A stretch of 64,000 nucleotides of DNA. Origin: Phyllobates terribilis. Taxonomy: Eukaryota. The notes under the pieces were generated by a model. The model did not search any database. It worked only from the letters and a program-made list of their open reading frames with translations, and had not been told where the DNA came from. Location of the stretch: NCBI RefSeq assembly GCF_046119375.1, contig NW_027362772.1, forward strand, positions 250,108,001 through 250,172,000. The letters run 5' to 3'. Positions 4,057 to 63,235 of this stretch are shown piece after piece. Position 1 is the first letter of the stretch. Each line of letters starts with the position of its first letter. Made by a program: the position numbers and the translations under genes.

Positions 4057-4178
4057 AACAATGTGGGAAGGGAAGCAAAAGGCCAGAAAAAGCCATACAG
4101 CTGACAAATACTATTGAGATCTCTGTTACTGGAAGTGGAAAAGAAGAACAAAGACAAAACAATTTAAATAATAAAAAT

Positions 4179-21860: not shown

Positions 21861-21873
21861 GTTTGCTCGGGCC

Positions 21874-22824: not shown

Positions 22825-22866
22825 GATCGCTCAGAGAGGTCGCCCTAGACAAAAGTAAACCCTCTC
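22806..22866 (+). promoter_or_regulatory. -1 ribosomal frameshift signal (GGGAAAC + predicted H-type pseudoknot)
   Basis: G GGA AAC at 22806-22812. Stem 1 GTCTAGG 22819-22825 / CCTAGAC 22844-22850; loop GAGAGG pairs with CCTCTC 22861-22866. The -1 frame is open into pol. Confidence 0.85.
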
Positions 22867-22874
22867 CATCCCTG

Positions 22875-25800
22875 ATGCTGTCTGTTTCTATCTTCTGCGG
22901 AGAGAACCGCTATTTTGAACTGGCTCAACTTGACTCTGGAGCTGCTGGAAATCTCATCTCTCAATCCCTGGTAGAAAAATACCACATTCCCACCAAACCT
23001 CTGGCCGTACCTTTATCTGTCGCCGCCGTGGATGGGGGCCTCTTACCACATCCCATCCAACTCATCACCGAATCTCTGACTCTACAGGTGGGAATGCTGC
23101 ATTCTGAGAGCATCTCCTTTCATGTTCTGCCTGGACTCTCTCACGCACTATTGCTTGGCCTGCCTTGGCTCCAGAAACATGCACCCGTGCTTGACTGGCA
23201 GACCGGAGAGGTCCTTCGCTGGGGACAGGACTGCCATAAGATTTGTCTAGTTCCCGTTCGTCCTGCCCGTCCTTCTCCTACCCCAGCCAATCTGCCCGGT
23301 CTTCCGGTTCCCTATTGGTCTTATGCGGATGTCTTCAATAAAAAAGAGGCAGAGACTTTACCTCCTCATAGACCATACGACTGCCCAATCGACCTGATGC
23401 CCGGCTCTACTCCTCCCCGTGGGCGAATCTACCCTTTGTCCACTGCTGAAACCCGGTCCATGTCTGAATATATTGAGGAGAACCTGGCCCGGGGATTTAT
23501 CCGGAAATCTACCTCCCCGGCGGGAGCAGGCTTCTTCTTTGTCAAAAAGAAGGACGGCTCACTCCGTCCATGTATAGACTATAGAGGCCTAAACCAGATT
23601 ACTGTGAAGAATAAATCCCCCCTTCCGCTTATTCCTGAATTATTTGACCGTCTGAGGGGGGCTAGAATCTTCACCAAACTGGATCTCCGTGGGGCGTATA
23701 ACCTGGTCCGTATCCGTCAGGGGGATGAGTGGAAGACGGCATTCAATACCCGGGACGGCCACTATGAGTACCTTGTGATGCCCTTCGGTCTCTGTAACAC
23801 TCCTGCCGTCTTTCAAGAGTTGGTCAATGACATCTTCCGTGATCTTCTCTACTCCTGCGTGGTGGTGTACCTGGAAGATATCTTGGTCTTCTCTCCGGAT
23901 CTTCCTACTCACCGGAGGGACGTTCGTCAGGTCCTGCTCAGGCTCAGGCAGAACCACCTCTACGCTAAATATGAGAAGTGCATCTTTGAGCACACCTCTC
24001 TTCCATTTCTGTGCTACATAATCTCTCAGACAGGTCTACAAATGGATCCTGAGAAACTGTCTGCCATCCAGAAGTGGCCCCGACCAAAGGGGTTGAAGGC
24101 TATTCAGCGGTTCCTGGGCTTCGCCAACTATTACCGCCTGTTCATACCGCACTTCTCTTCCCGGACCGCCCCTATCTCTGCTCTCACCCGTAAAGGTACG
24201 AACCCCAGAGAATGGCCGCCCGAAGCAGAGGAGGCATTTCTTTCCTTAAAACAGGCCTTCCTCTCCGCCTCGGTGCTGCATCGTCCGGACGGCAACAAAC
24301 AATTCTTCCTAGAAGTTGACGCCTCCTCCTCCGGAGCTGGGGCGGTACTTACCCAAAAATCTTCTTCCGGAAGAAAGGTAACCTGCGGCTTTTTCTCCAA
24401 ACTTTTCTCCTCTTCTGAGCGCAATTATTCTATAGGAGACCGAGAATTGTTGGCCATTAAGATGGCACTGGAGGAGTGGCGTTACCTGCTCGAGGGGGCT
24501 CTCCACCCGGTAATAATTTACACTGATCACAAGAACTTGGCATATCTCCAGAGCGCCCAGAGACTTAACCCGCGCCAAGCCCGGTGGTCTTTGTTTTTTG
24601 CCCGCTTTGATTTCATTCTTCATTTTCGTCCGGCTGACAAAAAGATCAAAGCTGACGCCCTGTCCCAATCCTTTCTGGTGTCTGATCTTGAGGAGGAGCC
24701 TAAACACATCATCGATCCCGCCAGAGTAATGCAGGTAGCCCCCGTGGGCCTAAATCGTCTCCCTCCCGGTAAGACGTTCGTAACAGAGTCCGATCGGGAG
24801 AAGATTCTACACTGGGGTCACTCGTCTAAGCTAGCTGGGCATGCCGGTCAGAAAAAGACCCTCCAGCTTATTACCCGGCACTACTGGTGGCCTACCCTGC
24901 ACAAGGATGTAATTGACTTTGTTTCTGCCTGTGTGTCCTGCGCCCGCAACAAAGTTCCGAGACACCTGCCTGCCGGCCGCCTTCTTCCTCTGCCTGTGCC
25001 TGCTGCCCCGTGGCAACATATAGCTATGGACTTCATAACAGATCTCCCTGTCTCTGCCGGTTGTACGGTCATTTGGGTGGTCGCTGACCGCTTTTCCAAA
25101 ATGGCTCATTTTATTCCCCTGCCAGGCCTCCCGTCTGCTCCCGAGCTAGCTAAAGACTTTATCCGCCACATCTTCCGTCTCCATGGTCTGCCTCTCCACA
25201 TCGTGTCGGATCGTGGGGTTCAGTTCACCTCACGCTTCTGGAGAGCCACATGTAAACTGCTCGACGTCACCTTGGACTTCTCCTCCGCTTACCACCCACA
25301 GTCCAATGGTCAAGTGGAGCGGATCAATCAGAATTTGACCAGTTACCTCCGGCACTTCGTTAATGCCCACCATTCAGACTGGGTGGATCTCCTACCATGG
25401 GCCGAGTTCTCTTACAACAATCACGAGAGCGAATCTTCTTCTAAATCCCCGTTTTTTGTAGTCTTCGGTCAGCATCCTCGGATCCCTTTTCCTGTCTCCA
25501 CCTCTGTGGACAACCCGGCCGCGGAATCTCTCGTTAGCAAATTTTCCTCCATTTGGGAGAGTACCCGTTCCGCACTCCTTCAGTCGTCCGAGCGGATGAA
25601 GAGACACGCCGACAAAAAACGCCTGGATTCCCCACAATTTCGTCCCGGAGATAAAGTCTGGCTCTCATCCAAATATGTCCGGCTCAAGATTCCTTCCTAT
25701 AAGTTAGGGCCTCGGTTCATCGGCCCACTGGAGGTTATCAAACAGATCAACCCGGTGGCCTATAAATTGAAACTCCTGGCCAACTTACGGATCCCTAACT

Positions 25801-26291
25801 CCTTCCATGTATCTCTTCTCAAACCCGTGGTACTTAACTCCTTTTCCAAGTCTACAGGTACGCCTCCTGCTCCGGTTTCTGCTGAAGACGAGTTTGAGGT
25901 AGAGAACATTCTGGCCACCAAAAGGGTAAGAGGAAAGACCTTTTTTCTAGTGGATTGGAAGGGGTTTGGTCCTGAGGAGAGAACATGGGAGCCCCGGGAG
26001 AACATCCATGCCCCTCTCATCCTTGCTAAATTTCTGTCTGGCCTAAAAAAGGGGGGGCCTAAAGGGGGGGGTACTGTAGCGTCGGCGTCCCTGCCTCCTG
26101 CTAGGCAGGGACGCTGTTCCCCTCACCTCTCTGCTCCGTGCCCGGCGGCTTCCTCCCGCTCTGCTTGCAGCGCCCGCTCTCCCCCGGTCACTGTGCTTAG
26201 GGCGCGCGCGCGCTACCCCTCTCTTAGAGGGGCCGCACGCGTCGCCCTAAGGAGTCCCCGGCCAATGGCCGGAGGATCCCTCCATATATAA
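22875..26291 (+). CDS. pol: Pol (protease, RT, RNase H, integrase, chromodomain); reached from gag by -1 frameshift at about 22806
   Basis: LDSGA protease; RT with YLED in place of YLDD; VDASSSG RNase H; HHCC and DDE integrase; chromodomain EFEVENIL...FLVDWKGFGPEERTWEP. The frame runs into the 3' LTR. Confidence 0.95.
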   Translation: MLSVSIFCGENRYFELAQLDSGAAGNLISQSLVEKYHIPTKPLAVPLSVAAVDGGLLPHPIQLITESLTLQVGMLHSESISFHVLPGLSHALLLGLPWLQKHAPVLDWQTGEVLRWGQDCHKICLVPVRPARPSPTPANLPGLPVPYWSYADVFNKKEAETLPPHRPYDCPIDLMPGSTPPRGRIYPLSTAETRSMSEYIEENLARGFIRKSTSPAGAGFFFVKKKDGSLRPCIDYRGLNQITVKNKSPLPLIPELFDRLRGARIFTKLDLRGAYNLVRIRQGDEWKTAFNTRDGHYEYLVMPFGLCNTPAVFQELVNDIFRDLLYSCVVVYLEDILVFSPDLPTHRRDVRQVLLRLRQNHLYAKYEKCIFEHTSLPFLCYIISQTGLQMDPEKLSAIQKWPRPKGLKAIQRFLGFANYYRLFIPHFSSRTAPISALTRKGTNPREWPPEAEEAFLSLKQAFLSASVLHRPDGNKQFFLEVDASSSGAGAVLTQKSSSGRKVTCGFFSKLFSSSERNYSIGDRELLAIKMALEEWRYLLEGALHPVIIYTDHKNLAYLQSAQRLNPRQARWSLFFARFDFILHFRPADKKIKADALSQSFLVSDLEEEPKHIIDPARVMQVAPVGLNRLPPGKTFVTESDREKILHWGHSSKLAGHAGQKKTLQLITRHYWWPTLHKDVIDFVSACVSCARNKVPRHLPAGRLLPLPVPAAPWQHIAMDFITDLPVSAGCTVIWVVADRFSKMAHFIPLPGLPSAPELAKDFIRHIFRLHGLPLHIVSDRGVQFTSRFWRATCKLLDVTLDFSSAYHPQSNGQVERINQNLTSYLRHFVNAHHSDWVDLLPWAEFSYNNHESESSSKSPFFVVFGQHPRIPFPVSTSVDNPAAESLVSKFSSIWESTRSALLQSSERMKRHADKKRLDSPQFRPGDKVWLSSKYVRLKIPSYKLGPRFIGPLEVIKQINPVAYKLKLLANLRIPNSFHVSLLKPVVLNSFSKSTGTPPAPVSAEDEFEVENILATKRVRGKTFFLVDWKGFGPEERTWEPRENIHAPLILAKFLSGLKKGGPKGGGTVASASLPPARQGRCSPHLSAPCPAASSRSACSARSPPVTVLRARARYPSLRGAARVALRSPRPMAGGSLHI

Positions 26292-27119
26292 GGCACCTCC
26301 TCCAAAATGGAGGTGCCCGAGCAATGTTGTTGCACTGTTCACTACTCTGCTTCAGCCCTCAGGTCCTGTTTCCAGTTACCTGCCAGTTACCTGCCAGTTA
26401 CCGGCCAGTTTCCTGCCAGTTTGCTGTCTGATTCCTGCCTGTTATCCGCTTACCCGTTTGCTAGCCTGAGGTCCGACGGTCTGCCTTCCGACTCCTGTCA
26501 GTCTGTCTATGGACCAGCTTGCCCGCTCACCTGGGAGCGCTCATCTGCTACCTGCCTGTTAGCCTACCTGGAGGCTCCGCCGTCACGTGCTGTGACCACC
26601 TGCCAGCCCAGAGACTCTTGCCCGCTCACCTGGGAGCGCTCATCTGCTACCTGCCTGTTAGCCTACCTGGAGGCTCCGCCGTCACGTGCCGTGACCACCT
26701 GCCAGTCCAGAGACTCTTGCCCGCTCACCTGGGAGCGCTCATCTGCTACCTGCCTGTTAGCCTACCTGGAGGCTCCGCCGTCACATGCTGTGACCACCTG
26801 CTTATCCAGAGACTCTCGCCTGCTCACCTGGGAGCTCTCATCTGCCATCTGCCTGCTAGCCTACCTGGAGGCTCAGCCGTCACAGGTCGTACCTGCCCGT
26901 TTACCCAGAGACTGTCCCGGTCACTTGCTGTGACCTCCTGCCCGTTTACCCAGAGACTGTCCCGGTCACTTGCCGTGACCTCCTGCCCGTTTACCCAGAG
27001 ACTGTCCCGGTCACCTGCTGTGACTGCCTGCCTGTCTTCCCTGGTCGCCACCCGCTTCCTTACAAGGACCGCCCCCTTGTATAAGTTGCTCAGAGGTTCC
27101 GCCTCCCAGACCCGTTACA
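26075..27119 (+). repeat. 3' LTR (1045 bp) containing 99-bp x3 and 45-bp x3 units
   Basis: Follows the PPT AAAAAAGGGGGGG...GGGGGGGG; one unit fewer of each array than the 5' LTR. Confidence 0.95.
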
Positions 27120-28898: not shown

Positions 28899-30114
28899 TG
28901 ACGCGCCCCCTGGGCCATGTTCAAGAGACACCCGGAGCCGGATCTGGATAGGGGTAGTAGTCCGTGTGGCGGTGACCCGGTCCGTGCCCAGGGTGGTCAA
29001 ACTAAGTGTGTGGCAGTCTTTGTAGATGTTGTTTGAGTGCCGACTACGCCACCCGTTGATTGCGGCTAGGAGGCCGCCGCTGCAGAGCAGACCGCTGAGG
29101 CCGGTGGTAGGTTTGTGCAGCAAGGATGGTATAACCCCCAACGGGAGGGGTATGGCCTCAGGGCAGCAGATGTGGAAGTTGGTGGTAGTGATGGTGCAGC
29201 AAGGAAGCTCAGAGACAGGTGATGCAGTTTCAGGGTTTTTACTCACAGGTGTTGCTCCGGTCACTCCGGCCTTGAGTGACCACCCGAGCCGTGCTGCGTC
29301 CACCAGGTGTGGGACTCGGCCAACTCCCAGGCAATCCAGAGCGTGGTCCTGAGCTCCCTTCTCTCTCTCTCTCTGCTGGCCGTTCCCACCAGGGATCCAC
29401 CTTTGTCCGGCTCCCTCGGGCCTCTTGGTGGTAAAACCTTCTCTGGCTTTCCTGACCATATTCGTGGTGTGCCTTCCTGGTGGATGTGGTGAGGGTCGTG
29501 GCAAAACTTAACCACGACCTCCGGTTCCTGGCTAAGGATCATTAGCCTCTGCCAGTTAGGGTTCCGGTACCCGTTTCTGCCAACCCTTCACCCTTCTGGT
29601 TTACTTCTGGGATCTTAGGGTTCCCTCTTGTCTTGTGTCTCTGGGCCTTTCTTCCTCCTTCTCTCCACTACAGGCCTGGCCCTGGAGCTGGGCCCAGCCG
29701 GAGCCACAGCTCCCTGTCAGCCCTCCTGGCTGAGCTCCTCTGCTCTGCTCCTCCTCAGTCTGACTGACCCTGTCCTAAGATGGTGCCCACCATATATACT
29801 CCCTCTATGTGTGAGCCCAGGTGACTAGCACCCAATGGGCTCCTACCTCTATGCCCAGAGTCCCTCCCCTATCTGCCCCTACACTACTGGGATGTTCCCC
29901 CCCCCCTCCCACTCCAGCCAGGGACAGACGCTGTCGTACCTGCACATCTAACTGGTGGGAGTACCGTAGTTCTGTCCCCCGGAAATGGGATGAGTGTAGT
30001 GCATGCAGCTGTCTGAGCTCAGTCCCACACTCCATCCTTACCCGGGAGTGGAATACCACACCTCTGGAGTGAGGTGCAATACCCCTGTAGCAGCCGAGTC
30101 CTCAGGGTGCTACA
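28899..30114 (-). repeat. 3' LTR of the CSD element
   Basis: Direct repeat of 32565-33780; preceded in element orientation by the PPT CCAGGGGGGAA. Confidence 0.95.
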
Positions 30115-30700
30115 TTCCCCCCTGGTAAATCACAGCACGTCCTCGGGCTGTAAAAGAATAAAAACATACCAAAACATACAAACTTTTTAAAACATACACT
30201 AACATATAAAACATTATAAACACATATAATATGACAGGTAACTTCTCATATATTATTTTAGCAATATAACTTTTGATATAAAACTTTTCATATAAAATGT
30301 TCTTAAGCTTCTGGCCACTGTGCAAATTGTGACCAGGTAAAGGGCCACAGTCACTAGAAGAAAACAGCAGTTTTCCTATAAAACCGGTAGGGGGCGCCTT
30401 GGGAAGCGCAACTATGTACAGGTTATGGCCGCTCTCAGTCCTCGGCCAGGTAGAGGGAAAGAACGACCGCTCTCAGTCCTCGGTCAGTGGGGATAAGGGA
30501 TGGCTGCTCACAGTCCTCAGCCTGTGGGGAAAAAGGGATGGCTGCTCACAGTCCTCAGCCTGTGGGGAAAAGGGGCACACAGGTAACAGTTCACACTAGT
30601 CCCAACGGGGACCACACTTCACTTAGCAGCAATTCACATAACAGTTCTTGTAACAGTTCTCATACCCCGACGGGTAACTTTATACAGTTCTCTTTACCGT

Positions 30701-32590
30701 TCAGTGGTAACGATGCCCTCCTGCTCCTTCCTGAAGGTAATTTTCAGACCCGTCCGGGTCCTCTTGATCTCCCTCGTACCGCAGCTCTTCTTCCGTCAAT
30801 CGGTGCACATGAAGGGCGTATGCTCCTTTGGCACACTGATGCCGGGTGAAGGTGACCTCGTCACCCAGGTAAAGGTCACGACCACGGTGTCCCTCCGGCA
30901 GATGAGACTCGACATCCCTGCGGGTGACAAAGACGTCGCCGGGGGTTCTGTGATCCCTGATAAAGCCCCAACCGTGCTCCAGTTGGAACTTGATTACAGT
31001 CCCGGTGGCGCGGGGACCGTGGGCTGCACGGGGGTTTCGCCGGGTCCGGCTTTTCTGCTCCGCACTTTGGACCTGCAGCCGCTCCTCGCGGATCCGCCTC
31101 TCTCGCCGTTCCCTCTGAAAGACCTCCAGCTGCTGACGGCAGCACTCCGCACGCTGGGCTGCGGCCGCCCGGGTCTCTTGGGTGAACCCCATGAGGTTTT
31201 CGCCGGTGGGGTCCCATTCGAACTGCGCCTCCTCCAACGGGAGTGGGGTTATCTTGGCGGGCGCCGGAGCCGGGATCAGGGGCTCACATAGGGGTCTTTC
31301 CTTCCGGAGTCGGAGATTGAGGTACTCCGGTGGCCACTCAAAGGGCTGCCCATCCGGGCAAGTATGTTGCGTGAACAGGTCTTCACCCAAGGGTAGCACA
31401 GTGGAGGTTGAGGGCGCGGTGGTGGTAGCGGCGCCCGGATGCACCAGGCCTTGCGACCAGGCCGGTGGCACCCTAAAGGTGAAGGGCACTGTGGAGACGG
31501 CGGCGCCCGGGGGTACTCGGCCTTGCGACCAGGCCGGTGGCGTTTCCTGCTTGGCCGCGCTCAGGGTCAAGGCGTGTGACGTCACAGGGGGCGTGGCCGC
31601 GGCTCCTGCCGCTTGAGGCCTAGTTTGGAGCGGTGGCGGTGTAGCAACAGGAACGATCAGTGGGACTTCGGGCTCTGCGACGGGGAGCTGGGGCAGGCTT
31701 ACGGCTTCTGGGCTCGGGGTGATGACGTCCCCTTTACCTGCTTCCATCTCTTCAGCTCCTTCCACGGCGTCGTCTCCGGCCTTCGTCCCTCCTGCACCAT
31801 CCTCAGAGGCAGGCGTGCTCCTCGTTGTGGGTGGCGTCCTATGCTGGCGGGTTCCAGCCTGCAGGGCCATTTCTCTGCTCCACTCGGCCAGTACTTCTTG
31901 CTGCACTCGGGCCATCTTCCGAGCCAAGCCCTCCAGCGCGGTCTGTGCATGCTCCCGATCTTTGGGGAGCTGTGCCAGGATCTCCACCAGGCCTTCTGGG
32001 GTGGCGGCCTGCAGCAGGCTCCTGACCATCGGGTCGGTGCTGCCTGACTCTCCCTCCATCTCCGGGTGCGTTCTCTCCAGACTCCTCCAGGCTGCACCCA
32101 TCCTCTCTCTTTTGTTCTTGATCCGCCCATACTGAGGGCGGTCCTGGGGCAACTTGGTGATTGTCAGTTCCAGGGGCAGCCCTCTCACGCTGATGGACAT
32201 TTCTACCATTGCAGTCTCTGCTGGTGGGGGCGGTTTCCGCTTTTGGCGCCATTCCTGGACCTGGCCCACGATGGGAGGTGGCCTCTTGCCACCCTCTGGC
32301 ACGCCCATAATGGCGTCCGCTCTGCCAGGGCGGGAAATCGTCTCAGATGGCGGGAATTGTCTCTTTATGGCGGGAAACTCCGTGGATGGCGGGAAAAGGC
32401 TGCAGATGGCGGGCAAACGACGGGAAACGACCCGAGATGGCGTCCGATGGCGGGGACCCTCCGGAATTGGCGGGAGACTCCTTTTTACGGTAAATGTGAA
32501 CTTTTCTTCAGGCACGCAGTACCCGGTGGTTGCGGGCACGTAATCCTGCCGACTACGCCAAAGTTGACGCGCCCCCTGGGCCATGTTCAA
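30701..32590 (-). CDS. Retroelement accessory protein with a C-terminal cold-shock (CSD/OB-fold) RNA-binding domain and acidic tail
   Basis: 629-codon open frame; the first ATG lies in the LTR, and the internal Met at 32308 gives 535 aa. CSD at 30797-31012: TGTVIKF..EHGWGFI (RNP1-like) ..GDVFVT (RNP2-like) ..L.LGDEVTF...KGAYALHV. Preceded by an R/E-rich helix. Confidence 0.8.
   Translation of the reverse strand: MNMAQGARQLWRSRQDYVPATTGYCVPEEKFTFTVKRSLPPIPEGPRHRTPSRVVSRRLPAICSLFPPSTEFPAIKRQFPPSETISRPGRADAIMGVPEGGKRPPPIVGQVQEWRQKRKPPPPAETAMVEMSISVRGLPLELTITKLPQDRPQYGRIKNKRERMGAAWRSLERTHPEMEGESGSTDPMVRSLLQAATPEGLVEILAQLPKDREHAQTALEGLARKMARVQQEVLAEWSREMALQAGTRQHRTPPTTRSTPASEDGAGGTKAGDDAVEGAEEMEAGKGDVITPSPEAVSLPQLPVAEPEVPLIVPVATPPPLQTRPQAAGAAATPPVTSHALTLSAAKQETPPAWSQGRVPPGAAVSTVPFTFRVPPAWSQGLVHPGAATTTAPSTSTVLPLGEDLFTQHTCPDGQPFEWPPEYLNLRLRKERPLCEPLIPAPAPAKITPLPLEEAQFEWDPTGENLMGFTQETRAAAAQRAECCRQQLEVFQRERRERRIREERLQVQSAEQKSRTRRNPRAAHGPRATGTVIKFQLEHGWGFIRDHRTPGDVFVTRRDVESHLPEGHRGRDLYLGDEVTFTRHQCAKGAYALHVHRLTEEELRYEGDQEDPDGSENYLQEGAGGHRYH
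32542..32560 (-). promoter_or_regulatory. Primer-binding site complementary to the tRNA-Ser 3' end
   Basis: TGGCGTAGTCGGCAGGATT (19 nt) matches vertebrate tRNA-Ser(AGA/TGA) ...AATCCTGCCGACTACG-CCA; 4 nt downstream of the 5' LTR. Confidence 0.88.
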
Positions 32591-33780
32591 GAGACACCCG
32601 GAGCCGGATCTGGATAGGGGTAGTAGTCCGTGTGGCGGTGACCCTGTCCGTGCCCAGGGTGGTCAAACTAAGTGTGTGGCAGTCTTTGTAGATGTTGTTT
32701 GAGTGCCGACTACGCCACCCGTTGATTGCGGCTAGGAGGCCGCCGCTGCAGAGCAGACCGCTGAGGCCGGTGGTAGGTTTGTGCAGCAAGGATGGTATAA
32801 CCCCCAACGGGAGGGGTATGGCCTCAGGGCAGCAGATGTGGAAGTTGGTGGTAGTGATGGTGCAGCAAGGAAGCTCAGAGACAGGTGATGCAGTTTCAGG
32901 GTTTTTACTCACAGGTGTTGCTCCGGTCACTCCGGCCTTGAGTGACCACCCGAGCCATGCTGCGTCCACCAGGTGTGGGACTCGGCCAACTCCCAGGCAA
33001 TCCAGAGCGTGGTCCTGAGCTCCCTTCTCTCTCTCTCTCTGCTGGCCGTTCCCACCAGGGATCCACCTTTGTCCGGCTCCCTCGGGCCTCTTGGTGGTAA
33101 AACCTTCTCTGGCTTTCCTGACCCTATTCGTGGTGTGCCTTCCTGGTGGATGTGGTGAGGGTCGTGGCAAAACTTAACCACGACCTCCGGTTCCTGGCTA
33201 AGGATCATTAGCCTCTGCCAGTTAGGGTTCCGGTACCCGTTTCTGCCAACCCTTCACCCTTCTGGTTTACTTCTGGGATCTTAGGGTTCCCTCTTGTCTT
33301 GTGTCTCTGGGCCTTTCTTCCTCCTTCTCTCCACTACAGGCCTGGCCCTGGAGCTGGGCCCAGCCGGAGCCACAGCTCCCTGTCAGCCCTCCTGGCTGAG
33401 CTCCTCTGCTCTGCTCCTCCTCAGTCTGACTGACCCTGTCCTAAGATGGTGCCCACCATATATACTCCCTCTATGTGTGAGCCCAGGTGACTAGCACCCA
33501 ATGGGCTCCTACCTCTATGCCCAGAGTCCCTCCCCTATCTGCCCCTACACTACTGGGATGTTCCTCCCCCCCTCCCACTCCAGCCAGGGACAGACGCTGT
33601 CGTACCTGCACATCTAACTGGTGGGAGTACCGTAGTTCTGTCCCCCGGAAATGGGATGAGTGTAGTGCATGCAGCTGTCTGAGCTCAGTCCCACACTCCA
33701 TCCTTACCCGGGAGTGGAATACCACACCTCTGGAGTGAGGTGCAATACCCCTGTAGCAGCCGAGTCCTCAGGGTGCTACA
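32565..33780 (-). repeat. 5' LTR of the CSD element
   Basis: TGTAGCACCCTGAG ... GGCCCAGGGGGCGCGTCA in element orientation. Confidence 0.95.
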
Positions 33781-34730: not shown

Positions 34731-37561
34731 TAAGGTGTTATGAAGAGTTTTGGAAACGTTTTCATGCAGCCTTTTGATTAAACAGTGCGTAGTTTGGAGT
34801 GGATTCCATCAGGAGATACTTCAAAGTAGTGACATCAGCTTTAATTTTTTCCAACAATAGTTTTTCAAAATCGGAAATGGAAAAAAAAAGCTCTATGTAT
34901 GAACAGACAAGAGGATTAATATTAAACTCTATGGGAAGAATCTTTCAAACAACTTTTCAGGTGATTTTGTGTGGCGTCTTGTGGAACCGATCCGCCCAAA
35001 AAACTCTATCTAGCCAAAAAATAAATCAAAAAGTCATATATACCCCAAAATGCTACCAATGAAAATACCAACTCATTCCGCAAACAGCAAACTCTTCACA
35101 GCTCAACGGGAAAATCAAAAAAATGATATCTCAGAATTTGAGGAAACAAAACTAAATATCTTTTATGCTGTAAATCTATTTTTTTCTGTACCCGTCCAAA
35201 AAAACTAATAAAGATTTTTCAGTATACATACCCCAACATGGTGCCCTGAAAAACATCCTGTCCCAGGATAAAAACCATGTGCCTACATCAAGAGAAAAAT
35301 AAAATAAAGCTATGGCTCTCAGAAAGGTTTTGTGAACGTTGTTGACTAATGATGTGGAATTACAACGGTAAATCTTGTCATATTGGATGGGACTCTACAG
35401 ACCTTCAGGTTCCTATCCTATAATGACCATATTGGGTGCTGTAAGATATGATCTTCTGGAGGAAACCTGTTTTGTGGAGCTGTAAATCATCTGTCGTAAC
35501 AAAATTTACTAAATCATTACGAGGAACATTTCCAATAAAACTGAAGATTCACAATAACTTGTAGGTAAAATAAACTGTCGGAAACCCAACGTATGGACGT
35601 CCAATCTAAGTGTTGGAGAGCTTCAGGTCTTAGCTTTGGATAATGAAGGTTCTTAAATGAAGCCTCCATAACACGTGGAACTACTGTAATAAAAGTACTT
35701 GTCACCCTATTCAGAATCCCAGGAAAGGTCACCGATTTAGCTGACTCCTGAAAGAGTAGACAAATCTCCCGGATCCCACCGAATCATACAGAAAACAGTT
35801 CTACCGTATGGTTTCTTCCATGAATGGAATGAGATGATAGTTGCTGCTCATAAAATTTTATGAAGAAGGGAGGGAAGAGGAGAAACAGACATTATACTGC
35901 AGGTTCCATGGAATATTACGACCCACAACTGTCATCTCCTATCTCAACAATGGAAAAATCTATATTCAGAAAAGACAGATTTTCCCATTACTGAAATAGG
36001 AGATGGCAGACAGTGCTTAAAAGATTTTATGGAGGAGCTAAAGGTAGACACAAACATTCTGCTGCAAGTTCTCCTAAAACCACAGCTACAGTTCTCCATT
36101 GAACTTTATGAGCGCCAACTGTCATCTCCTATCTCAGTAATGGGAAAATTTGTATTTACGGGAGACACATTTTACCTATGAATTGAGTATTTTGAGAATG
36201 AATGATCAATCCAGGAAGAGTAAGAAGCAGATTTCTCTGATAGGATGTGTTACAAAGTTTCTTATTCTTACATGTACTATTGATTTATGAAAACAAATAA
36301 AACAATGGCTACCCTTCAAGCATCGGTTTTAGAGGGTGTGTCTGGTTTAGAAACCTCATTCTGAAAAGTCCTATAAAAAGTTTGATTTCTGAGTGGTTCC
36401 CTATTCAGGACACTTATATATTAGCTAGAGTGGACAATAACTAGAAAAAGTACCTTTTCTGTGCCCATGTTTGACACACAGCTCATTTGTGGCACCCCAG
36501 GGGTCTGGTTTCCACAGTAACAGCAATGTTATGTCTGAGAGCAGGTGGGAGGTCTCTTGGTCAGGAATCCTATGCATGCCACACCTCCTGCCCAGTCCTG
36601 GGAGGGGAAGAACTTCCCCTATATAAACCTGGGGCTGAGGCAGGGTTAGGAAGTTCAGAGGGAGAGTTCAGCCAGGAGGGCTGACAGGGAGCTGTGGCTC
36701 CGGCTGGGCCCAGCTCCTGGGCCATGCCAGAAGTAGAGACAGAGAAGAGAAGCAGCTATGGGAAGAAGCAACAGGAGCTCTGTGGGAGCAGTGTTACAAG
36801 GAGTCAGGGGCTGGCAGCTGCAGAGCTCGCCCTGACTGAGAAGATTTCTTACCGGACCCGGAGTCCGAGGCTGTGGGGACTAACTCCTACCCAGCAGCAG
36901 AATCCGTCAGGCAGGGGATTTCAGGTCCTCTGGCCAAGAAACCCGAAGGCACGGTCACACGCATGGGACCAGCACCGCCGTCGTGGAGCGGAAGCTACTA
37001 GAAGGCCCCGAGTCACCGGCCATACGGGTGAGCACCACACGGTACACTCAGGGACGTGGGCTACTTTTACCCGCCTCTAGCAAGGTAGCCAGAAGAGTAC
37101 AGTTAGCTGGGAAGGCCTACAACTCCACCTGGCCAGGGGAGATCCCATCTGCTCAAGGACTGACCAGGCCCCGATCGCTAGCAAGTACTCCGGGAGGGTC
37201 TATCTTTGTCACCAGTAAAGACCCTGAACTACACGCATCGTCTCTGAGTGGTTCCTGCTACCCCCATCATCCACGTCGGCTGCCCTGAGGCCATACCCCT
37301 CCCGTTGGGGGTTATACCATCCCCGCTGCACCATCTTTCCACCGGCCTCAGCGGTCTGCCCTGCAGCGGCAGCTCCAAAGCTGCATTCAACGGGTGGCGT
37401 AGTCATCCAACATCTACTGCTAGTAGACTCGCCACTTAGTTTGACTCCCTGGGCACGGACCGGGTCACCGCCACGAGACTACTACCCCCATCTGATCCGG
37501 CTCCGGGTAAGCCCCCGTGCACGCGATGCCGCACGACACAGACCCAGGGGTGCGTCAACTT

Positions 37562-37580
37562 TTGGCGTAGTCGGCAGGAT
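37562..37580 (+). promoter_or_regulatory. tRNA-Ser primer-binding site
   Basis: TGGCGTAGTCGGCAGGATT, 4 nt after the LTR; identical to the PBS of the 28899-33780 element. Confidence 0.88.
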
Positions 37581-38017
37581 TTCGTGCCCGCAACCACCGG
37601 GTACTGCGTGCCTGAAAAAGACTGTTCAAACTTACCAGTGGTGAAGATTCCCGCCATTCGTGAAGATTCCCGCCATCCGGCGCCATCTTTTGCCTCCTTC
37701 CCGCCATCGGTGGAGTTTTCCCGCCATCCGGCGCCATCTTCTGCCTTCTTCCCGCCATCCGTGGAGTTTTCCCGCCGTTGGACGCCATCTTGAAGACGCC
37801 GCGCGGGAAGAAGAGGGGCGTGGACTCCGAAGGCGCGCGAGAACTGAAGCCCCGCCTCACGTCCGGACGTTGCGTAAGGTCCTGGAAGGAGCCCAGCAGA
37901 CGCCGACGTCACAGGAGCGCGACGGAAGGTCCTCAACCCTGACGATCCACTGCGGAGCCGCGGCCTACGGAAGAGGATCATCGCAAGGTAGGCCACAGTC
38001 CACTAGGGGGGAGGAAG

Positions 38018-38419
38018 ATGTCGGATACGGAGGAGAGCTTCACTGCCTCAACCCCCGCCAGCGCCAGCGCTGCTGCAGTCATGCCTTTTACCATGCCCTA
38101 TATCCCGGGAGCAGCCTGGCTACCCCAATACTCAGGGGAGTCACATACCCTGAATGACTTTAGTGAAAAGCTGGATAGCCTCTTCCAGGTGTACCCCCTC
38201 ATAGAAGAGCAAAAAGTGAGCATCCTGGTGGCCCAATTAACCGGGGCAGCCCAAAGGGAGGTAAAGTCCTGGCCACCTGGGAGGAGGACTGTCGCAGAGA
38301 TACTAACCCAGCTAACCGAGGAGGAGCTGCAGTACTACCAATACGAGGAAAGCCAAGAGGACCCGGACGGGTCTGAGGACTACCCTCAGGAGGGAGCACA
38401 AAGAGGACATAGCTACTGA
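38018..38419 (+). CDS. Truncated Gag N-terminus (PNMA-like) fused in frame to the acidic tail of the CSD protein
   Basis: WLPQYSGE...FSEKLDSLF...QKVSILVAQLTGAAQREV resembles the start of a Gypsy capsid. It ends LTEEELQYYQYEESQEDPDGSEDYPQEGAQRGHSY*, versus LTEEELRYEGDQEDPDGSENYLQEGAGGHRYH* in the CSD ORF. Confidence 0.7.
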   Translation: MSDTEESFTASTPASASAAAVMPFTMPYIPGAAWLPQYSGESHTLNDFSEKLDSLFQVYPLIEEQKVSILVAQLTGAAQREVKSWPPGRRTVAEILTQLTEEELQYYQYEESQEDPDGSEDYPQEGAQRGHSY

Positions 38420-40022
38420 AGGGAAGTAGCGTGAATAAAGAGCTGTAAATAGTTACCCGTAAGGGTACAAGGACTGCTGCTAATTAAAATATGGTCCCCG
38501 TTGGGATTAGTGAATTGTTCCCCATGTGCCCCTATCTTAAACCAGGCTGAGGACTGTGAGCAGCCATTCCTTATCCCCACTGGCCGAGGTCTGAGAGCGG
38601 CCATATCCTGTAAATAATTATGTGTTTCTAGTAATTTATGGGAGTCTTTGGTGGATTTACCGGAAATCCTTTGTACATGGTTGGAGCGTAACCCAGGAAT
38701 GGACTAAAGACTGTTAAGGACTCGGGGCAGGACAGACCCCTACCTGGTTACCTCTCCCTGTTTTGGTGAAATGGACACCTTGCTTTTCTTCAAAACTGCA
38801 CCCGGTTGCGGACACGCCGTAACCATCTTTATGTGTTTTTCTTATTGTATTATTATTGTTTATACCTTGTTATGTTTTTCTAAAAATATGTTTAGTCCCG
38901 GAGTACTAAATTTCACTAGGGGGGAATGTGGCACCCCAGGGGTCTGGTTTCCACAGTAACAGCAATGTTATGTCTGAGAGCAGGTGGGAGGTCTCTTGGT
39001 CAGGAATCCTATGCATGCCACACCTCCTGCCCAGTCCTGGGAGGGGAAGAACTTCCCCTATATAAACCTGGGGCTGAGGCAGGGTTAGGAAGTTCAGAGG
39101 GAGAGTTCAGCCAGGAGGGCTGACAGGGAGCTGTGGCTCCGGCTGGGCCCAGCTCCTGGGCCATGCCAGAAGTAGAGACAGAGAAGAGAAGCAGCTATGG
39201 GAAGAAACAACAGGAGCTCTGTGGGAGCAGTGTTACAAGGAGTCAGGGGCTGGCAGCTGCAGAGCTCGCCCTGACTGAGAAGATTTCTTACCGGACCCGG
39301 AGTCCGAGGCTGTGGGGACTAACTCCTACCCAGCAGCAGAATCCGTCAGGCAGGGGATTTCAGGTCCTCTGGCCAAGAAACCCGAAGGCACGGTCACACG
39401 CATGGGACCAGCACCGCCGTCGTGGAGCGGAAGCTACTAGAAGGCCCCGAGTCACCGGCCATACGGGTGAGCACCACACGGTACACTCAGGGACGTGGGC
39501 TACTTTTACCCGCCTCTAGCAAGGTAGCCAGAAGAGTACAGTTAGCTGGGAAGGCCTACAACTCCGCCTGGCCAGGGGAGATCCCATCTGCTCAAGGACT
39601 GACCAGGCCCCGATCGCTAGCAAGTACTCCGGGAGGGTCTATCTTTGTCACCAGTAAAGACCCTGAACTACACGCATCGTCTCTGAGTGGTTCCTGCTAC
39701 CCCCATCATCCACGTCGGCTGCCCTGAGGCCATACCCCTCCCGTTGGGGGTTATACCATCCCCGCTGCACCATCCTTCCACCGGCCTCAGCGGTCTGCCC
39801 TGCAGCGGCAGCTCCAAAGCTGCATTCAATGGGTGGCGTAGTCATCCAACATCTACTGCTAGTAGACTCGCCACTTAGTTTGACTCCCTGGGCACGGACC
39901 GGGTCACCGCCACGAGACTACTACCCCCATCTGATCCGGCTCCGGGTAAGCCCCCGTGCACGCGATGCCGCACGACACAGACCCAGGGGTGCGTCACATT
40001 CATTTCCATAGGCACTGCTTTT

Positions 40023-46672: not shown

Positions 46673-46686
46673 TCTATATATATATA

Positions 46687-48078: not shown

Positions 48079-48559
48079 TATATTGCAAGGCGGCGTTGTT
48101 CACACCGTGCAGTAAGTGAGGCAGTGACCCAAGCAAGTCCAATATAAACAGCTTTTATTTCAGCAACTCACGGGTTAACAGAAAGTCCTCCGGTTCGCAG
48201 TCGGGTTAACAGAAAGTCTATACACAATGGTTGCCGAGGGCAATGGCCGTGCCGGCCGCTCAGAGCCTGACAGGTGCAGAGCCTTCCCAGGCGTGGGTTC
48301 AGCCACCCTCAGTACTGCTGAGGTTTCCTGCTGTGCTCCTAGCAGGTTCCAACACAGAAAACAACACTAATCCTTAGTGCAGGGTTTTTAAAGGACTTGT
48401 GGCAAGAGCCACTGGAAAACCCAGGTTGGAGGGAGGAGGCCGCCCCACTGCCTCCTGTGACCTCCTCCAAGAAATGAAGGCCCTGCCGGGTTTTACTAAT
48501 CTGCCTTAGCCAGATAGCCTGACCAGGTGAATGCTCACCTTCATTCCTGCATTGCAGCC

Positions 48560-53421: not shown

Positions 53422-53530
53422 CAGCCGCAGCTGTGTCTGTGACTGCAATACACTCCAATGGATTTAATAGGTCTCTGTACACATTCTGGGGGAGATATAA
53501 CGTCCCTCGTATACGATCCCGGTCACTGCC

Positions 53531-53560
<30 letters not shown>

Positions 53561-53561
<1 letters not shown>

Positions 53562-54634: not shown

Positions 54635-54679
<45 letters not shown>

Positions 54680-54680
<1 letters not shown>

Positions 54681-56267: not shown

Positions 56268-56271
56268 TATA

Positions 56272-59200
56272 TGACGCGCCCCCTGGGCCGTGGGAGTACT
56301 CGGCAGCCGGGCCTCTGCGTATGCCGGTGGGGGATATCACGGTGGCTGGCCCGGTCCGTGACCCAGCGCGGTCAGTAAAAAGGGGAATTTATAGGGGATT
56401 TGGAAAGTTCGTGATGCCACCTGTGGAATGCGGCAAAAGGGGTGCCGCCACTGCGGAGCAGTCCTCTGGAGCGGGTGTTACGGCAGCAGGGATGGTGTGG
56501 CTCTCCACAGGTAGAGCTAGCTCCAGGGCAGCGTGGGGTGTAATGGACGATGCTGGGGAGAGACGGCAGGATGGTCCCGGAGGAAAGGCGGACACTCACA
56601 TGGGGGTAAGCTTCAGTACTTTTACTGGTGATGGTGCAGGCACGGTCCAGGGTACTCTGGGTGAAGGGTGCACTTTTGGACTCTCCCCAGTGAGCGGGTA
56701 TAGGGCCTCCTGATCGGTGGCTTTTCTCGCTAAGCTTCTGGCCTGCCTGGAACTAGGCCTAGCTTGGTTACTGTCTCTCTCTCCCTTGCACCTGCTGACT
56801 TGGTGGTAGGGCCTTCTCTTTGGAGATCACTCTCCCTGGACACTGGGGCCTCCGTGACTCCTAGCCCTGGTACTGTAGTCAGCGTTTGGCAAACCTGGGA
56901 CCTGTAGTTCTCCAGGGGTTCCGGTAGTCCCTACTGGGTGTAAAGAGTCCCTGTAGGCGCGGACGCGGTGTCCGGTATATATCTCGGGGTGAGCCTGGTA
57001 TGCTCCTCTGCCCCCCTTGTTACTTCTTCCTTCTCTTCTCGCCTTCGGCCACACTTAAGGCCCTCACTAGACTTAACCTCGTGCTGTAGGCTTTGGCTCG
57101 CCTCTTCACTGCTCTCTGAGCATCAGCATGCTCTCAGCTCACTCTGAGCTCTGTTCCTCTCTGAACACTAAACTGAAACTAACTGAGCTGCCTGGCTCCA
57201 CCCTCCCTATATATATCCCTAACGGGCTCCCTCTGCTGGTCTGAGGTGGTAGGGTGGAGGTGTGTGAATGTGTGAGGGCCTCTTGTGGAGAAGTCCATCC
57301 ACGCACCCTTCTGGGTTCTGTGGCACCAGTGCGTAGCAGGGCGCCACATTCCCCCCTAGTAAAACTCAGTACTCCTGGATTGAAGCATTTTTCTCAAAAC
57401 AGGTTAAACAATAACATCTTTTCTTCCCTTTATGGGAGGCACTTTGCTTGAACGTTACAGGTAACAACAATAACAAGTATAATAATTATAATAACATTAA
57501 AGTTACAGCAAGTCCCATAACCTGGTGTCCATTTCACCGATGAAGGAACATGAGGGACCCACCTGAAAACCCTCAACCTAGGCCCTGGGCGTGGCTACAG
57601 GGCATAGGTGATCCAGGTGCTGGACCACGTCTTCTGCCACGCCAAATGGGTTTTTGTTCCGTGGTCACTTAAGGGGCACTCCAGGGAGTGCAACTATGTA
57701 CATGAACAGTTTTTGGGCTGCTCACAGTCCTCAGCCACCGAGTCCTTTATATATACCCTTACGGGTTGCTAAATAAACACATATATTTCAGTTTATGCAA
57801 TAAACATTATGCAATACCCTACTGGGTAACTATTTATACTGCAGGTATTTTTTTTTTAACTTACTCGTTATACCTGACAGGGGTCTGGCCTTTCGTGCTA
57901 CTCGATGACCTACGCAGTACAGGGATGCATGTAGTGTGGATGCTTGCGCTATTTTCCGCTCTATGTGTTGGTGGACTGCAAGACTGCCTTAACCTCTCTA
58001 CGGGATTGGCAAGTACACTGGTTACTGGGCCTACTGGCTCTGCTTCTACCGGTGATCCTTCTTCCGGGGATTCTTCATGAGCAGGCTCTTCCGGGGCACT
58101 TTCAGGTCTTACTTGCAGTGGAGAGTCTTCTGGCTGTTGGTAGAACTGTAGCACAGGTATTATTACCGCTCCATCCAGTTGAGACCAATCTACCGGGAAA
58201 TCTCCTAAGTCAGTATGGAGTACTTCTTTAGGCTCCTCCGGTACGGTGAGAGGCACTTCCTCCTGGGGCTTAAGCGGACTTGGGCACAACTTCAGATGGT
58301 CTCTTGATACCGTTGCAGTTGTTCTTCCTCCGCCTTTGCTAATTAGACAGGTTTTCCTATTATCAAATCTGGAATTCAACACAGTGTAAGGTTCTCTTTC
58401 CCACTGGTCGTCAAGTTTATGGCTTCTTCTCTTTCATTTCAGCACAACTTCTCCAGGTGTCAAGGGTTCGGCTGGTGCACTCTTGTTGTACTGTGCTTCC
58501 TGCTTATCTCTCACCCTACTTAGACTGTCTTCGACACAGGCCTGTACTTTCTTGTACTGCTCCTGTCGAGTCGTATCCCAGTCTTCAGTGGACATATCTG
58601 CTTCTGGCTCTACCACTCCAAGCTCCAGGTCCATGGGCAACTTTCCGGGTCTTGCTCTCATGAGGTACTCTGGAGTACAATTGGTGGAACTCACAGGTAT
58701 GTGATTGTACAGATCTACCAGGTCAGGTAGTTTGTCTGGCCACTGGTTTCTTCCTTCTAGAGGTAAGGTCTTCAACAGGTCGATGACTATGTTATTCATC
58801 TTTTCACATAACCCATTGGTTTGGGGGTGGTACCTTGTAGTCCGGATCTTCTTACACCCGTACAGATGGCAAAACTCCTTGAACAGCTCGGCTTCAAAGG
58901 CAGGGTCTTGATCCGTCAGCACCTCTTCCGGGTATCCATGGGGCCTGCAGAAGTACGCTTGAAACGTCTTTGCTACAGTTTCTGCCATCAGATCCTTGAC
59001 GGGGGCTACCACCAGGAACCGGGAGTAGTGATCCACCATGGTCAGGGCATACAAGTAGCCTGACCTGCTGGGTGACAGCTTGATGTGATCCAGAGCGACG
59101 ATCTCCAGGGGCTGGGTTGTCTTGATGGACTGCAGGGGTGCCTTCTGGATGCTGTAGTCTTTTCTTCTGAGGCTACAGGGTCCACAATCCCGGCACCACC

Positions 59201-61590
59201 TCTCTATGGAACTCCGCATTCCAACACAATAAAACCGATTCTTCAGGAGGGTTTCCAGCTTCTTCCAGCCAAAGTGCCCTGCTTGATCATGGTAGGCCTC
59301 CAACACCATCTGGATGTCTGTCCTTGGCACTACGATCTGCCATACCATCTCATGGGTCTTAGGGTTGACATACCTTCCGCACAGCTTCTCTCTATAGATG
59401 AACAGCCGGCTTCTCTCATTCCATAGTTGCTTGGCTTGGGGAGGAGCGTCCTTCTCAAGGGAGGAACCTTCCTGGGTTATCAGTTCTTTGATACGGCTGA
59501 TAACTGGGTCGCTGTCCTGGGTCTCCTTCCAACTGTGATGAGGTAAAGGGTTTAGCGTCTTACCACGATACCTCCGGGAGGTGCGCTGCTCGTGGACCAT
59601 CCCATTTCTGTGGAAGGCAGGTAGCTCAATCTCCTCCAGGTCATTCACTTCTTCTTCAGTAGCCGACTGGTGCGGCATTCTGGATAGGGCATCGACGTTG
59701 GCGTTCTAGTGGCCTGCCCAGTACTTGATGGTGAACTGATAGTTTGACAGCCGGGCCATCCAACGCTGTTCAATGGCTCCCAACTTGGCTGTCTCTAGAT
59801 GTGTCAAGGGGTTGTTGTCAGTGTAAGCCGTGAACTTACTGGAGGCCAAGTAGTGCTTGAATCGTTCAGTGATGGCCCAGACCAAGGCCAGGAACTCCAA
59901 CTTGAAGGAGTTATAGTTTTCCGGATTCCTCTCGGTCGGACGAAGCTTCCTGCTAGCATAGGCAATCACCTTCTCCTTGCCATTCTGCTTCTGACTCAAC
60001 ACAGCTCCTAGTCCCTCATTGCTGGCATCAGTGTACAGCAGGAAAGGTTGGCTGTAGTCAGGGTAGGCCAGGATTTCTTTGCCAGTCAGGATCTCTTTCA
60101 TCACTGCAAAGGACTCAGCCTGCTCTTTACCCCACTGGAAGGGGGGGGGGTTGCCTCTGTTGGACTGTCCTACCAGGAGATCTTGCAAAGGCTCTGCCTT
60201 CTTGGTGTAGTCCTTTACAAATCTCGGGTAATACCCGACCAGTCCCAAGAACTGACGTACCTCCTTGAGATCCTTCGGTTTCTTCCATTTCTGGATGGCA
60301 GTGACCTTCTCCGGGTCTGGTGCTACTCCTTCTGGATTAACGATGTGCCACAGGTACTGAACCTTCTGTTTGAGCAGGTGGCACTTGGAAGGCTTCAACT
60401 TCATCCCATACCGGGACAACGACTCAAATACCTCCGCTAGGTGCTTCAAATGGTCCTCATACGTCTTGGAGTACACTATCACGTCATCCAGGTATAGCAG
60501 CACGGTCTCGAAGTTACGGTGTCCCAAACAGCACTCTATCAATCTCTGGAACGTTCCAGGGGCGTTGCAGAGTCCGAACGGCATACTGTTGAACTCGCAG
60601 AGTCCCATCGGGGTAGTGAAGGCCGTCTTCTCCCAGTCCTCCTCAGCAACTGCTACTTGCCAGTACCCACTAGTGAGGTCAAGGGTAGAGAAGTAATTTG
60701 CGACTTTAGTGCAGCCAGGGATTCCTCGATACGGGGCAAAGGGTATGCATCTTTATGTGTTATGCGATTAATCTGTCTGTAATCTACACACTTCCTCATG
60801 CTTCCATCCTTTTTCCTGACCAGGACCAGGGGAGCTGCCCAGGTGCTACAGCTATCTCTTATTACCCCTGCCTTCCTCATGTTATGCAGCATTTCCTTCG
60901 CTTTCTGGTAGTGTGCTAGTGGTATGGGCCTGTAACGTTCTTTGATGGGTGGATGGTCACCTGTGGGTATATGGTGTTGTACCCCTTTAATCCTCCCGAA
61001 ATCAAGTGGGTGTTTGCTGAATACCTGTTCGTATTCCTGAACCACCCTGTATACACCTTGTTTCTGATGGACAGGAGTGGCGTCAGTCCCAACATAAAGC
61101 TGTTGGCAAACCTGGGACCTGTAGTTCTCCAGGGGTTTCGGTAGTCCCTACTGGGTGTAAAGAGTCCCTGTAGGCGCGGACCCGGTGTCCGGTATATATC
61201 TCGGGGTGAGCCTGGTATGCTCCTCTGCCCCCCTTGCTACTTCTTCCTTCTCCTCTCACCTTCGGCCACACTTAAGGCCCTCACTAGACTTAACCTCGTG
61301 CTGTAGGCCTTGGCTCGCCTAAGTACCGCAGCCAGTGTGCTGCCTCTTCGCTGCTCTCTGAGCATCAGCACGCTCTCAGCTCACTCTGAGCTCTGTTCCT
61401 CTCTGAACACTAAACTGAAACTAACTGAGCTGCCTGGCTCCACCCTCTCTATATATATCCCTAACGGGCTCCCTCTGCTGGTCTGAGGTGGTAGGGTGGA
61501 GGTGTGTGAGTGTGTGAGGGCCTCTTGTGGAGAAGTCCATCCATGCACCCTTCTGGGTTCTGTGGCACCAGTGCGTAGCAGGGCGCCACA
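56272..61590 (-). mobile_element. Gypsy LTR retrotransposon (pol-encoding type), defective: gag, protease, PBS and half of the 5' LTR deleted
   Basis: 3' LTR 56272-57348; truncated 5' LTR about 61103-61590; TSD TATA; PPT at 57349-57360; RT-RNase H-integrase order. Confidence 0.92.
57861..61101 (-). pseudogene. pol: Frameshifted pol: RT (YLDD), RNase H, integrase
   Basis: WAAPLVLVRKKDGSMRKCVDYR; MPFGLCNAPGTFQRL..YLDD; YTDASNEGLGAVL; HDQAGH..CGPC; LDHI...TDQ...TNGLCE. Split over ORFs 60653-61045, 59706-60608, 58434-59678 and 57861-58382. Confidence 0.92.
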
Positions 61591-61614
61591 TATATATATA
61601 TATATATATATACA

Positions 61615-63235
<1,621 letters not shown>

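Follow-up and report, generated by a model that had tools for sequence, protein, structure and literature searches.

Why do a satellite that encodes a cold-shock domain (CSD), a minimal element and a pol element all carry the same 21-nt hairpin in their 3′ untranslated regions (UTRs), and what could such a structure do for their RNA? The question is raised by a 64,000-nt stretch of the Phyllobates terribilis genome (hereafter the window, to which all coordinates refer), in which three LTR elements, termed here E30, E38 and E57, bear the feature. E30, the CSD satellite, occupies 28899..33780 on the minus strand; its LTRs (33780-32565 and 30114-28899) are 99.7% identical and are accompanied by the 4-bp target duplication GATG, and it is a young pol-less element with one ORF (30701..32662, minus; 653 aa stop-to-stop), which holds the CSD at about 30803-31006. 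Its primer-binding site (PBS; 32543..32560, minus) has 69,769 exact matches in the 10.57-Gb assembly of the source genome, the scope of all genome-wide motif counts given here, and we take the primer of this PBS type to be tRNA-Ser. E38 (36488..39996, plus) is a minimal element of 3.5 kb with LTRs at 36488-37557 and 38927-39996 (99.6% identity; target duplication CATT). E57 (56886..61591, minus) is the pol element, derived from an autonomous family by internal deletion: an upstream LTR piece is fused to mid-pol, leaving no PBS, gag, protease or dUTPase, and RT-RH-IN is split over separate, broken stop-bounded frames.

Other mobile DNA surrounds these elements. An intact-looking Gypsy chromovirus with gag and PR-RT-RH-IN-chromodomain lies at about 20668-27100 (plus), and as a control it contained neither the hairpin nor a Pumilio response element (PRE). 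An apparently pol-less LTR element at 48559-55441, with repeats 3,426 bp apart, includes an ORF (50085-52214, plus) that has a Gag-like match to DUF4939 and contains six coding repeats of 171 bp. At 2587-6425 (plus) a GDSL/SGNH hydrolase is joined to an RT frame and abuts an EN-RT LINE; we presume the joined frame to be Ngaro-like. An E38-family solo LTR within TA repeats and several Tc1/mariner copies were found at 53558-54634, 46675-48083, 54666-56272 and 61590-63260.

All seven copies of the hairpin were located where the original prediction had placed them, and its copy number of four, two and one in the CSD, minimal and pol elements was confirmed. In E30 (all minus) the coordinate check and the covariance model gave copy 1 (GGCTG/CAGCC, 30540..30560), copy 2 (the same stem, 30502..30522), copy 3 (GACCG/CGGTC, 30465..30485) and copy 4 (GGCCG/CGGCC, 30427..30447); both likewise gave two in E38 (38545-38565 and 38582-38602, spanning 38545..38602, plus), and E57 has a single copy at 57716-57736 (minus). 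The covariance model, which was built partly from these seven copies, returned exactly these seven at E<=5e-5 within the window, and the next-best match stood at E 0.65. The three ACCC..GGGT hairpins (30663..30676, minus; within 38444..38467, plus; 57755-57766 within 57716..57766, minus) and both TGTACATAGTTGC tails were also present as claimed, and a GTCCC/GGGAC hairpin lies between the ACCC..GGGT structure and the 21-nt copies in E30 (30599..30612, minus) and again in E38 (38494-38507). Across the genome the strict 21-nt pattern has 47,534 exact matches and its reversed control none. A looser pattern, which left the stems almost free and required GGAC 14-33 nt 5′ of the tail motif, gave 47,795 matches against 2 in the control; judged by eye, 7 of the first 100 listed are no hairpins but a GGAC that precedes the first tail-like motif. 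The hairpin thus occurs far more often than chance would allow. The stems of the window are three abundant genome types, GACCG/CGGTC making up 92 of the first 100 listed (by eye) among the 8,777 matches without G as the second base; wider sampling added the stems GGTTA/TAACC and GGTCA/TGGCC and many loops, and in a rare family (L208, L215, L223) the stem is bulged and extended. Rfam gave no match for 30000-30800 at E<=10, and neither this interval nor 57300-57900 reached the gathering threshold of any family, ribozymes included.

The distribution of the hairpin among related elements was examined at 60 of the first 67 PBS sites listed, the other seven being hairpin-bearing satellites that had already been sampled; 54 of the 60 loci had a resolvable 3′ end and six were dropped. 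Among these listed sites the non-autonomous elements carry the hairpin in 22 of 23 cases and in two to four copies in 20 of 23 (pattern matches in the pre-PPT hairpin and in coding sequence were discarded from the satellite counts), whereas none of the 31 autonomous elements has more than one: 14 have one GGAC copy, three a variant loop and 14 no hairpin. The predicted amplification in pol-less elements is supported by these counts. The 14 hairpin-less elements form a single abundant family, in which no covariance-model match below E 1.5 was obtained in the 12 members examined; in most of its copies a PRE is retained, 3′ of which come a long stem containing several GGAC/AGAC motifs and another type of GGAC-loop hairpin. 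E38 retains this alternative hairpin, typical of the autonomous family without the 21-nt hairpin, at 38724..38740 (plus). The corresponding region of E38 (38650-38770, plus) represents an L142-type UTR module, in which a PRE precedes a long stem around several GGAC/AGAC motifs, together with a GGGG/CCCC hairpin whose loop shows GGAC; the module substitutes for both hairpin and pseudoknot in one autonomous family.

E38 proved to be a recombinant. Its segments 36488-38313 and 38615-39996 derive from the hairpin-less autonomous family (90-96% identity), whereas a CSD element, 83% identical across some 280 nt, contributed 38339-38616 and with it the hairpin copies. The junction at 38297-38339 (plus) joins gag and the CSD tail in frame and founded a subfamily of about 2,000 copies; its motif has 2,011 copies in the genome. 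The UTRs around the hairpins, said in the original prediction to differ, do so only in part: those of the CSD and minimal elements are 81% identical (30500-30631 versus 38475-38604) because of the recombinant origin of E38, so that the number of independent lineages in the window is two and not three. Full-length relatives encode a PNMA-type Gag with a CCHC knuckle, protease, dUTPase, RT, RNase H and integrase (Pfam: PNMA E 9e-6; dUTPase E 3e-4, just under the cut-off), and the PNMA-type capsid, CCHC knuckle, dUTPase and PR-RT-RH-IN order expected of a PNMA-ancestor metavirus were all found. The hosts of the hairpin are Gypsy elements of the PNMA-Gag/dUTPase kind, primed presumably by tRNA-Ser, and their satellites. 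The same architecture is reported for the metavirus ancestor of PNMA genes by Henriques et al. (PMC11011659). A protein search with the Gag query gave no match; in a metagenome scan the integrase had a single weak match of 43 aa, with no usable UTR, and a scan of viral contigs gave none. Another hairpin lies just 3′ of the PBS in 54 of the 60 loci by pattern, five of the six misses being near-variants. It is conserved in autonomous and satellite families (37581-37615, plus, in E38; 32508-32542, minus, in E30), occurs also in families with a second PBS type (L059, L062, L040), and is a better candidate than the 21-nt hairpin for a general packaging or priming signal.

That the hairpin is a selected RNA structure was supported by covariation, by RNAalifold, which recovered the same stem unaided, and by conservation above synonymous sites and spacers. 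For covariation we aligned 27 distinct haplotypes from loci fetched without a stem constraint, some of them represented by a window copy or another locus and five added through a stem-shaped pattern, leaving out L036 (a 2-nt loop deletion) and two non-hairpin position picks. In this alignment 97.8% of stem cells pair, compared with 84.4+/-1.6% after shuffling (0 of 500 shuffles as high) and only 10-51% in slid registers, and double changes occur in four of the five stem pairs; with the stems unconstrained, pairing is full in 63 of 68 position-picked instances. Covariation in a larger alignment thus held for the cell-based measures, but not for event counts, which were reached by 56 of 500 shuffles for double-change pairs and by 80 of 500 for further pair types. 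The stem-type network contains four full compensatory swaps (pairs 2-5), joined mostly through G-U intermediates, where a random substitution preserves pairing only one time in three; there are about four independent swaps, every one of them transition-type, and that of pair 4 may come from CpG decay on both arms. Constraint is the stronger argument. Over the CSD region of 21 copies the mean dN is 0.086 and the mean dS 0.92 (171 of 210 pairs, those with dS<=0.15 or saturated being excluded), and still 13 of 14 CSD elements share an identical last hairpin, the remaining one having a wobble change; the chance that 21 unconstrained bases remain unchanged at a dS of about 0.9 is about 2e-7 per pair. 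Pairwise identity in the 14 elements is 97% for hairpins and 66% for spacers, the former somewhat inflated by the labelling of features by pattern. The stem itself is weak, each hairpin having a predicted energy of -3 to -7 kcal/mol. Shuffled sequences fold as well as the E30 UTR (z +0.98), copies 1 and 2 misfold in the predicted minimum-energy structure of this UTR, and nothing can be learned from the folding energies of whole UTRs (z +0.98 and -1.97). We conclude that the hairpin is real and under selection, with one genome as evidence.

A second component, overlooked in the original prediction, accompanies it. The tail TGTACATA is, judged by the consensus UGUANAUA, a Pumilio response element, for which Bohn et al. 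give this same consensus with a flexible position 5 (PMC5758885). Anchored on the hairpin and the next stem only, the tail 8-mers are exactly TGTANATA in 69 of 77 instances, with position 5 free (T38/A26/G7/C6), while each of positions 1-4 and 6-8 keeps its base in 73-76 of 77, a count that leaves aside 20 further instances without the downstream anchor. A second site of this type lies 5′ of the ACCC..GGGT hairpin: its pattern TGTANATAGTTRCCC has 32,284 genome matches against 29 in the control, 3,146 of them (9.7%) with G at position 5. The PRE therefore usually occurs twice per element, and both sites are intact in 14 of 14 aligned sister satellites, in which position 5 switches independently. 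In E30 the first position, TGTATAAA (30679..30686, minus), has one mismatch and stands directly before the ACCC..GGGT hairpin, and the second, UGUACAUA (30413..30420, minus), precedes another hairpin (30394..30412, minus) with the stem variants GCGC/GCGC versus GCAC/GTGC. E38 has UGUAAAUA both at 38444-38451 and at 38609..38616 (plus), the latter bearing the tail 8-mer TGTAAATA. E57 has TATAAATA with one mismatch (57831..57838, minus) before an ACCC..GGGT hairpin, and UGUACAUA (57695-57702) with a GCACTC/GAGTGC hairpin (57676..57702, minus). An exact PRE was missing from the last 800 nt in three of 31 intact-looking autonomous copies. Two alternative identities were dropped: a forkhead DNA motif for TGTAAATA, since position 5 is free, and a Smaug element for the ACCC..GGGT loop, which is variable. 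Further short conserved UTR motifs were noted at 30313-30334 (minus), 57425-57437 (minus), 30133-30150 (minus) and 38897-38928 (plus), and comprise the pre-PPT hairpin, a TCCCATAAAGGGA hairpin and a GGTYRC..GTRRCC hairpin after a ATGGACAC motif; in E30 the pre-PPT hairpin, which includes GAGGAC, and the polypurine tract (PPT) together occupy 30115..30150 (minus).

The loop had been described as near-invariant, but the E38 copy at 38582-38602 has the loop AGGTCTGAGAG with a private GGAC>GGTC change (its sister copy L186 keeps GGAC), and in wider samples only G-R-A-C, mostly GGAC, at positions 2-5 is fixed, with mostly G at position 9. GGAC is present in 67 of 68 position-picked instances, for which it was also the preferred anchor, and in 24 of 27 haplotypes; it is predicted to be unpaired in the loop, which would give the single-stranded presentation expected of a KH4 site. 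GAAC replaces it in two subfamilies (L143, L178). The 3′ neighbour of GGAC may be U, A or G, the last in several recurrent subfamilies, so that DRACH is not maintained; since GGACG is common, the m6A consensus, once suggested for this loop, is not its conserved feature, even if the GGACU copies in the window could be methylated. In 14 UTRs, which are homologous and not independent, the PRE occurs 24 times in sense against 0.9 expected (antisense 0), GGAC 68 times against 21 (antisense GTCC 29 against 22, not enriched), CPE-like UUUUAU/UUUUAAU 23 times in sense against 7 and RRACT 72 times against 35, while DRACH stands at 180 against 168 with 26 of 300 shuffles as high. We also dropped a hammerhead core, since GAAA does not follow the second stem and CUGA is not preserved, a K-loop, whose register breaks the stem, and an obligatory GGAC-GUCC pseudoknot, since L045 is without a conserved partner.

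Just 3′ of the hairpin, E57 and many other families have a further domain of about 100 nt (57551-57651, minus), which is absent from E30 and E38 and found in none (0/23) of the non-autonomous elements; it, too, had escaped the original prediction. Its five helices are predicted to make up a pair of interlocked pseudoknots. Over 33 natural copies pairing holds in 90.9% of cells, versus 87.8% after shuffling (0 of 500), and both crossing helices show C-G to U-A double changes (13 and 5 rows), in a model drawn by hand from the same sequences with a weak helix 3 (81%). The core motif of the domain occurs 17,210 times in the genome and not once in the control. Rfam returned five matches for 57300-57900, far below gathering and all on the opposite strand, and an HDV topology was dropped, the helix order being different. 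The domain is possibly an export element or a nuclease-resistant RNA, and it may be the more novel structure of the two; we found no earlier description of it.

The protein encoded by E30 is likewise under constraint. Its ORF matches the Pfam CSD (E 6.5e-7) and YB-1/CspA in the PDB, the aromatic RNP-like motifs are retained, and a dN/dS of about 0.09 shows strong purifying selection on the domain. The close homologues of the protein were named only from the poison frogs Phyllobates, Ranitomeya and Anomaloglossus; a search with the C-terminal part found no longer relative (at least 525 aa), which is weak evidence, the ESM Atlas yielded CSD leads only, below 0.9, and no earlier description of a CSD-encoding satellite was found. 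The pol-less CSD family makes up about a third of the sampled Ser-primed elements. Its ORF has the first ATG at the end of the 5′ LTR, with the frame crossing the PBS (32578-32543, minus, in E30), a start common to L054, L063, L064, L067 and L068.

Our preferred reading, to which we give a probability of about 0.45, is that hairpin and PREs would together form a docking cassette for host RNA-binding proteins that control the stability and translation timing of the element RNA. Directly after the stop codon, a 5-bp stem would display the GGAC loop beside the UGUANAUA motifs; PUM1/2 on the 8-mers would keep the RNA quiet or mark it for deadenylation, and a GGAC reader on the single-stranded loop would protect or carry it, KH4 of IGF2BP/Vg1RBP being the best candidate. 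With both bound, the RNA would last in the manner of a maternal mRNA until it is reverse-transcribed in the germ line, the site of control being probably oocytes and early embryos. Hairpin-less families retain a PRE and GGAC in another stem-loop, so that the function would be conserved and the scaffold exchangeable. It is reported that IMP1 KH4 recognises GGAC (PMC10484666), that Igf2bp3 stabilises maternal mRNAs (PMC7054421) and that Gypsy RNA is abundant in poison-frog ova (PMC6278860). A 4-nt loop core is compatible with many proteins, which counts against this reading, as do the two subfamilies with GAAC in place of GGAC. A more far-reaching version, in which paired PREs, an IGF2BP/Vg1RBP-bound GGAC hairpin, CPE-like UUUUAU runs and the double pseudoknot would make up a maternal-mRNA address label within a two-component system, is speculative and in our judgement unlikely.

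Several other functions deserve comparison with the docking cassette. A packaging or dimerisation signal for the zinc knuckle of the autonomous partner's Gag, multiplied in satellites that compete for capsids, would account for the contrast between two to four copies in satellites and at most one in their partners, for the spread of the chimera that captured the cassette (about 2,011 copies) and for the CCHC knuckle of Gag. It is not an obligatory signal, since 14 of the 31 autonomous Ser-primed elements are without the hairpin; the same family gave E38 its LTR, leader and gag, from which we infer that CSD RNA would be co-packaged by a machinery whose own RNA lacks the hairpin, and nearly all families share the post-PBS leader hairpin. 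We consider packaging improbable. The idea that the loop binds the satellite-encoded cold-shock protein, which would chaperone satellite and helper RNAs, is weakened in that 17 of 31 autonomous elements without a CSD carry the hairpin, with loops more diverged, although binding in trans is still conceivable. Purifying selection on the CSD, its aromatic motifs and YB-1/CspA likeness, and the multiplied hairpins in CSD elements speak for this idea, but purine-rich GGAC is not the known target of the YB-1 or Lin28 CSD, and we hold it to be quite improbable. A dedicated m6A display site draws on GGACU in six of seven window copies, on the RRACT enrichment and on GAACU variants that retain DRACH; against the non-DRACH GGACG of several recurrent subfamilies and a DRACH class that is not enriched, it has very little chance of being correct.

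Nuclear export of the MusD MTE or IAP RTE type, with the pseudoknot as main body and the hairpin as one domain, agrees with the position of the hairpin, which lies between pol and the PPT and in many families beside a covarying double pseudoknot, and the MusD MTE includes a pseudoknot and a kissing loop (PMC5767303). E30-type satellites, however, have the hairpin without the pseudoknot and the Pumilio elements suggest cytoplasmic control, which leaves export a doubtful explanation. Protection of a long 3′ UTR from nonsense-mediated decay, in the manner of the Rous sarcoma virus stability element, would fit the start of the cassette, at most about 30 nt from the stop codon, and the C/U-rich spacers between satellite hairpins, given that PTBP1 near a stop codon is reported to block UPF1 (PMC4764554); these spacers, though, are the least conserved segments (66%) and are missing from single-hairpin autonomous families, and the prospect is slim. 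The reading without any function, in which common descent, tandem duplication and recombination spread the hairpin and a few transitions mimic covariation, can point to only about four independent swaps, to the recombinant E38 and to one family that does without the hairpin. It is largely refuted already, and so has hardly any probability left, by a hairpin that stays unchanged over a dS of about 0.9 (about 2e-7 per pair for 21 identical unconstrained bases) while the adjacent spacers drift.

Among known systems, MTE and RTE are located in the 3′ part of their LTR elements and, with the MPMV CTE, offer a structured cis element in such a position, but they measure several hundred nt and are Retroviridae-type, whereas the present hairpin has 21 nt and belongs to a Metaviridae lineage. 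The beta-actin zipcode, the IMP1/ZBP1 KH4 site, also has a GGAC core within a 3′ UTR, yet it is bipartite and not the loop of a 5-bp hairpin. Mouse VL30 and Xenopus 1A11/Xretpos are pol-less LTR satellites that resemble the CSD satellite in paired LTRs, PBS, PPT, lack of pol and mobilisation in trans, although the sole ORF here encodes a selected cold-shock domain instead of Gag. The MusD MTE shares a pseudoknot with our neighbouring domain of about 100 nt, a resemblance in kind only (PMC5767303). In NORAD, whose architecture is similar, PREs are interleaved with short conserved stem-loops of unknown ligand (PMC4947167); it is a single mammalian lncRNA with 12 units, whereas the present cassette sits on a mobile element in tens of thousands of copies. 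The sites themselves agree with the Pumilio response element of PUM1/2 in the exact UGUANAUA, the free position 5, the sense-only occurrence in 3′ UTRs and the usual two per RNA, but here they occupy fixed positions in the genomic RNA of a retrotransposon, with GUU and then a hairpin 3′ of each one. The autonomous partners match the Gag/CCHC/protease/dUTPase/RT/RH/IN set of the PNMA-ancestor metaviruses (Gypsy-30_Ami-like), for which neither CSD satellites nor 3′-UTR structures are described in the available text (PMC11011659). The accessible text of Grau et al. on frog LTR elements mentions neither cold shock nor non-autonomous elements (PMC4131045), and searches of a mostly open-access literature listed no such cassette in a Gypsy or other LTR element, although supplementary Repbase or TE-library tables could list the families. 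The hairpin is a 3′-UTR cis element of an LTR retroelement, and as far as we searched this cassette has not been described before.

As far as the literature was searched, the cis-acting RNA signals of vertebrate Gypsy elements are uncharacterised, even though these elements drive the gigantism of frog genomes. A cassette of 100-300 nt with position-fixed Pumilio sites offers a direct test of whether retrotransposons exploit the mRNA-control code of the oocyte, and about 50,000 transcribed cassettes could, speculatively, titrate Pumilio. If the maternal address label were true, Gypsy RNA would resemble a dormant mRNA of the oocyte that is directed to the germ line, and its satellites, which multiply the hairpin and supply a cold-shock RNA-binding protein of their own, would have helped to inflate a 10-Gb genome.
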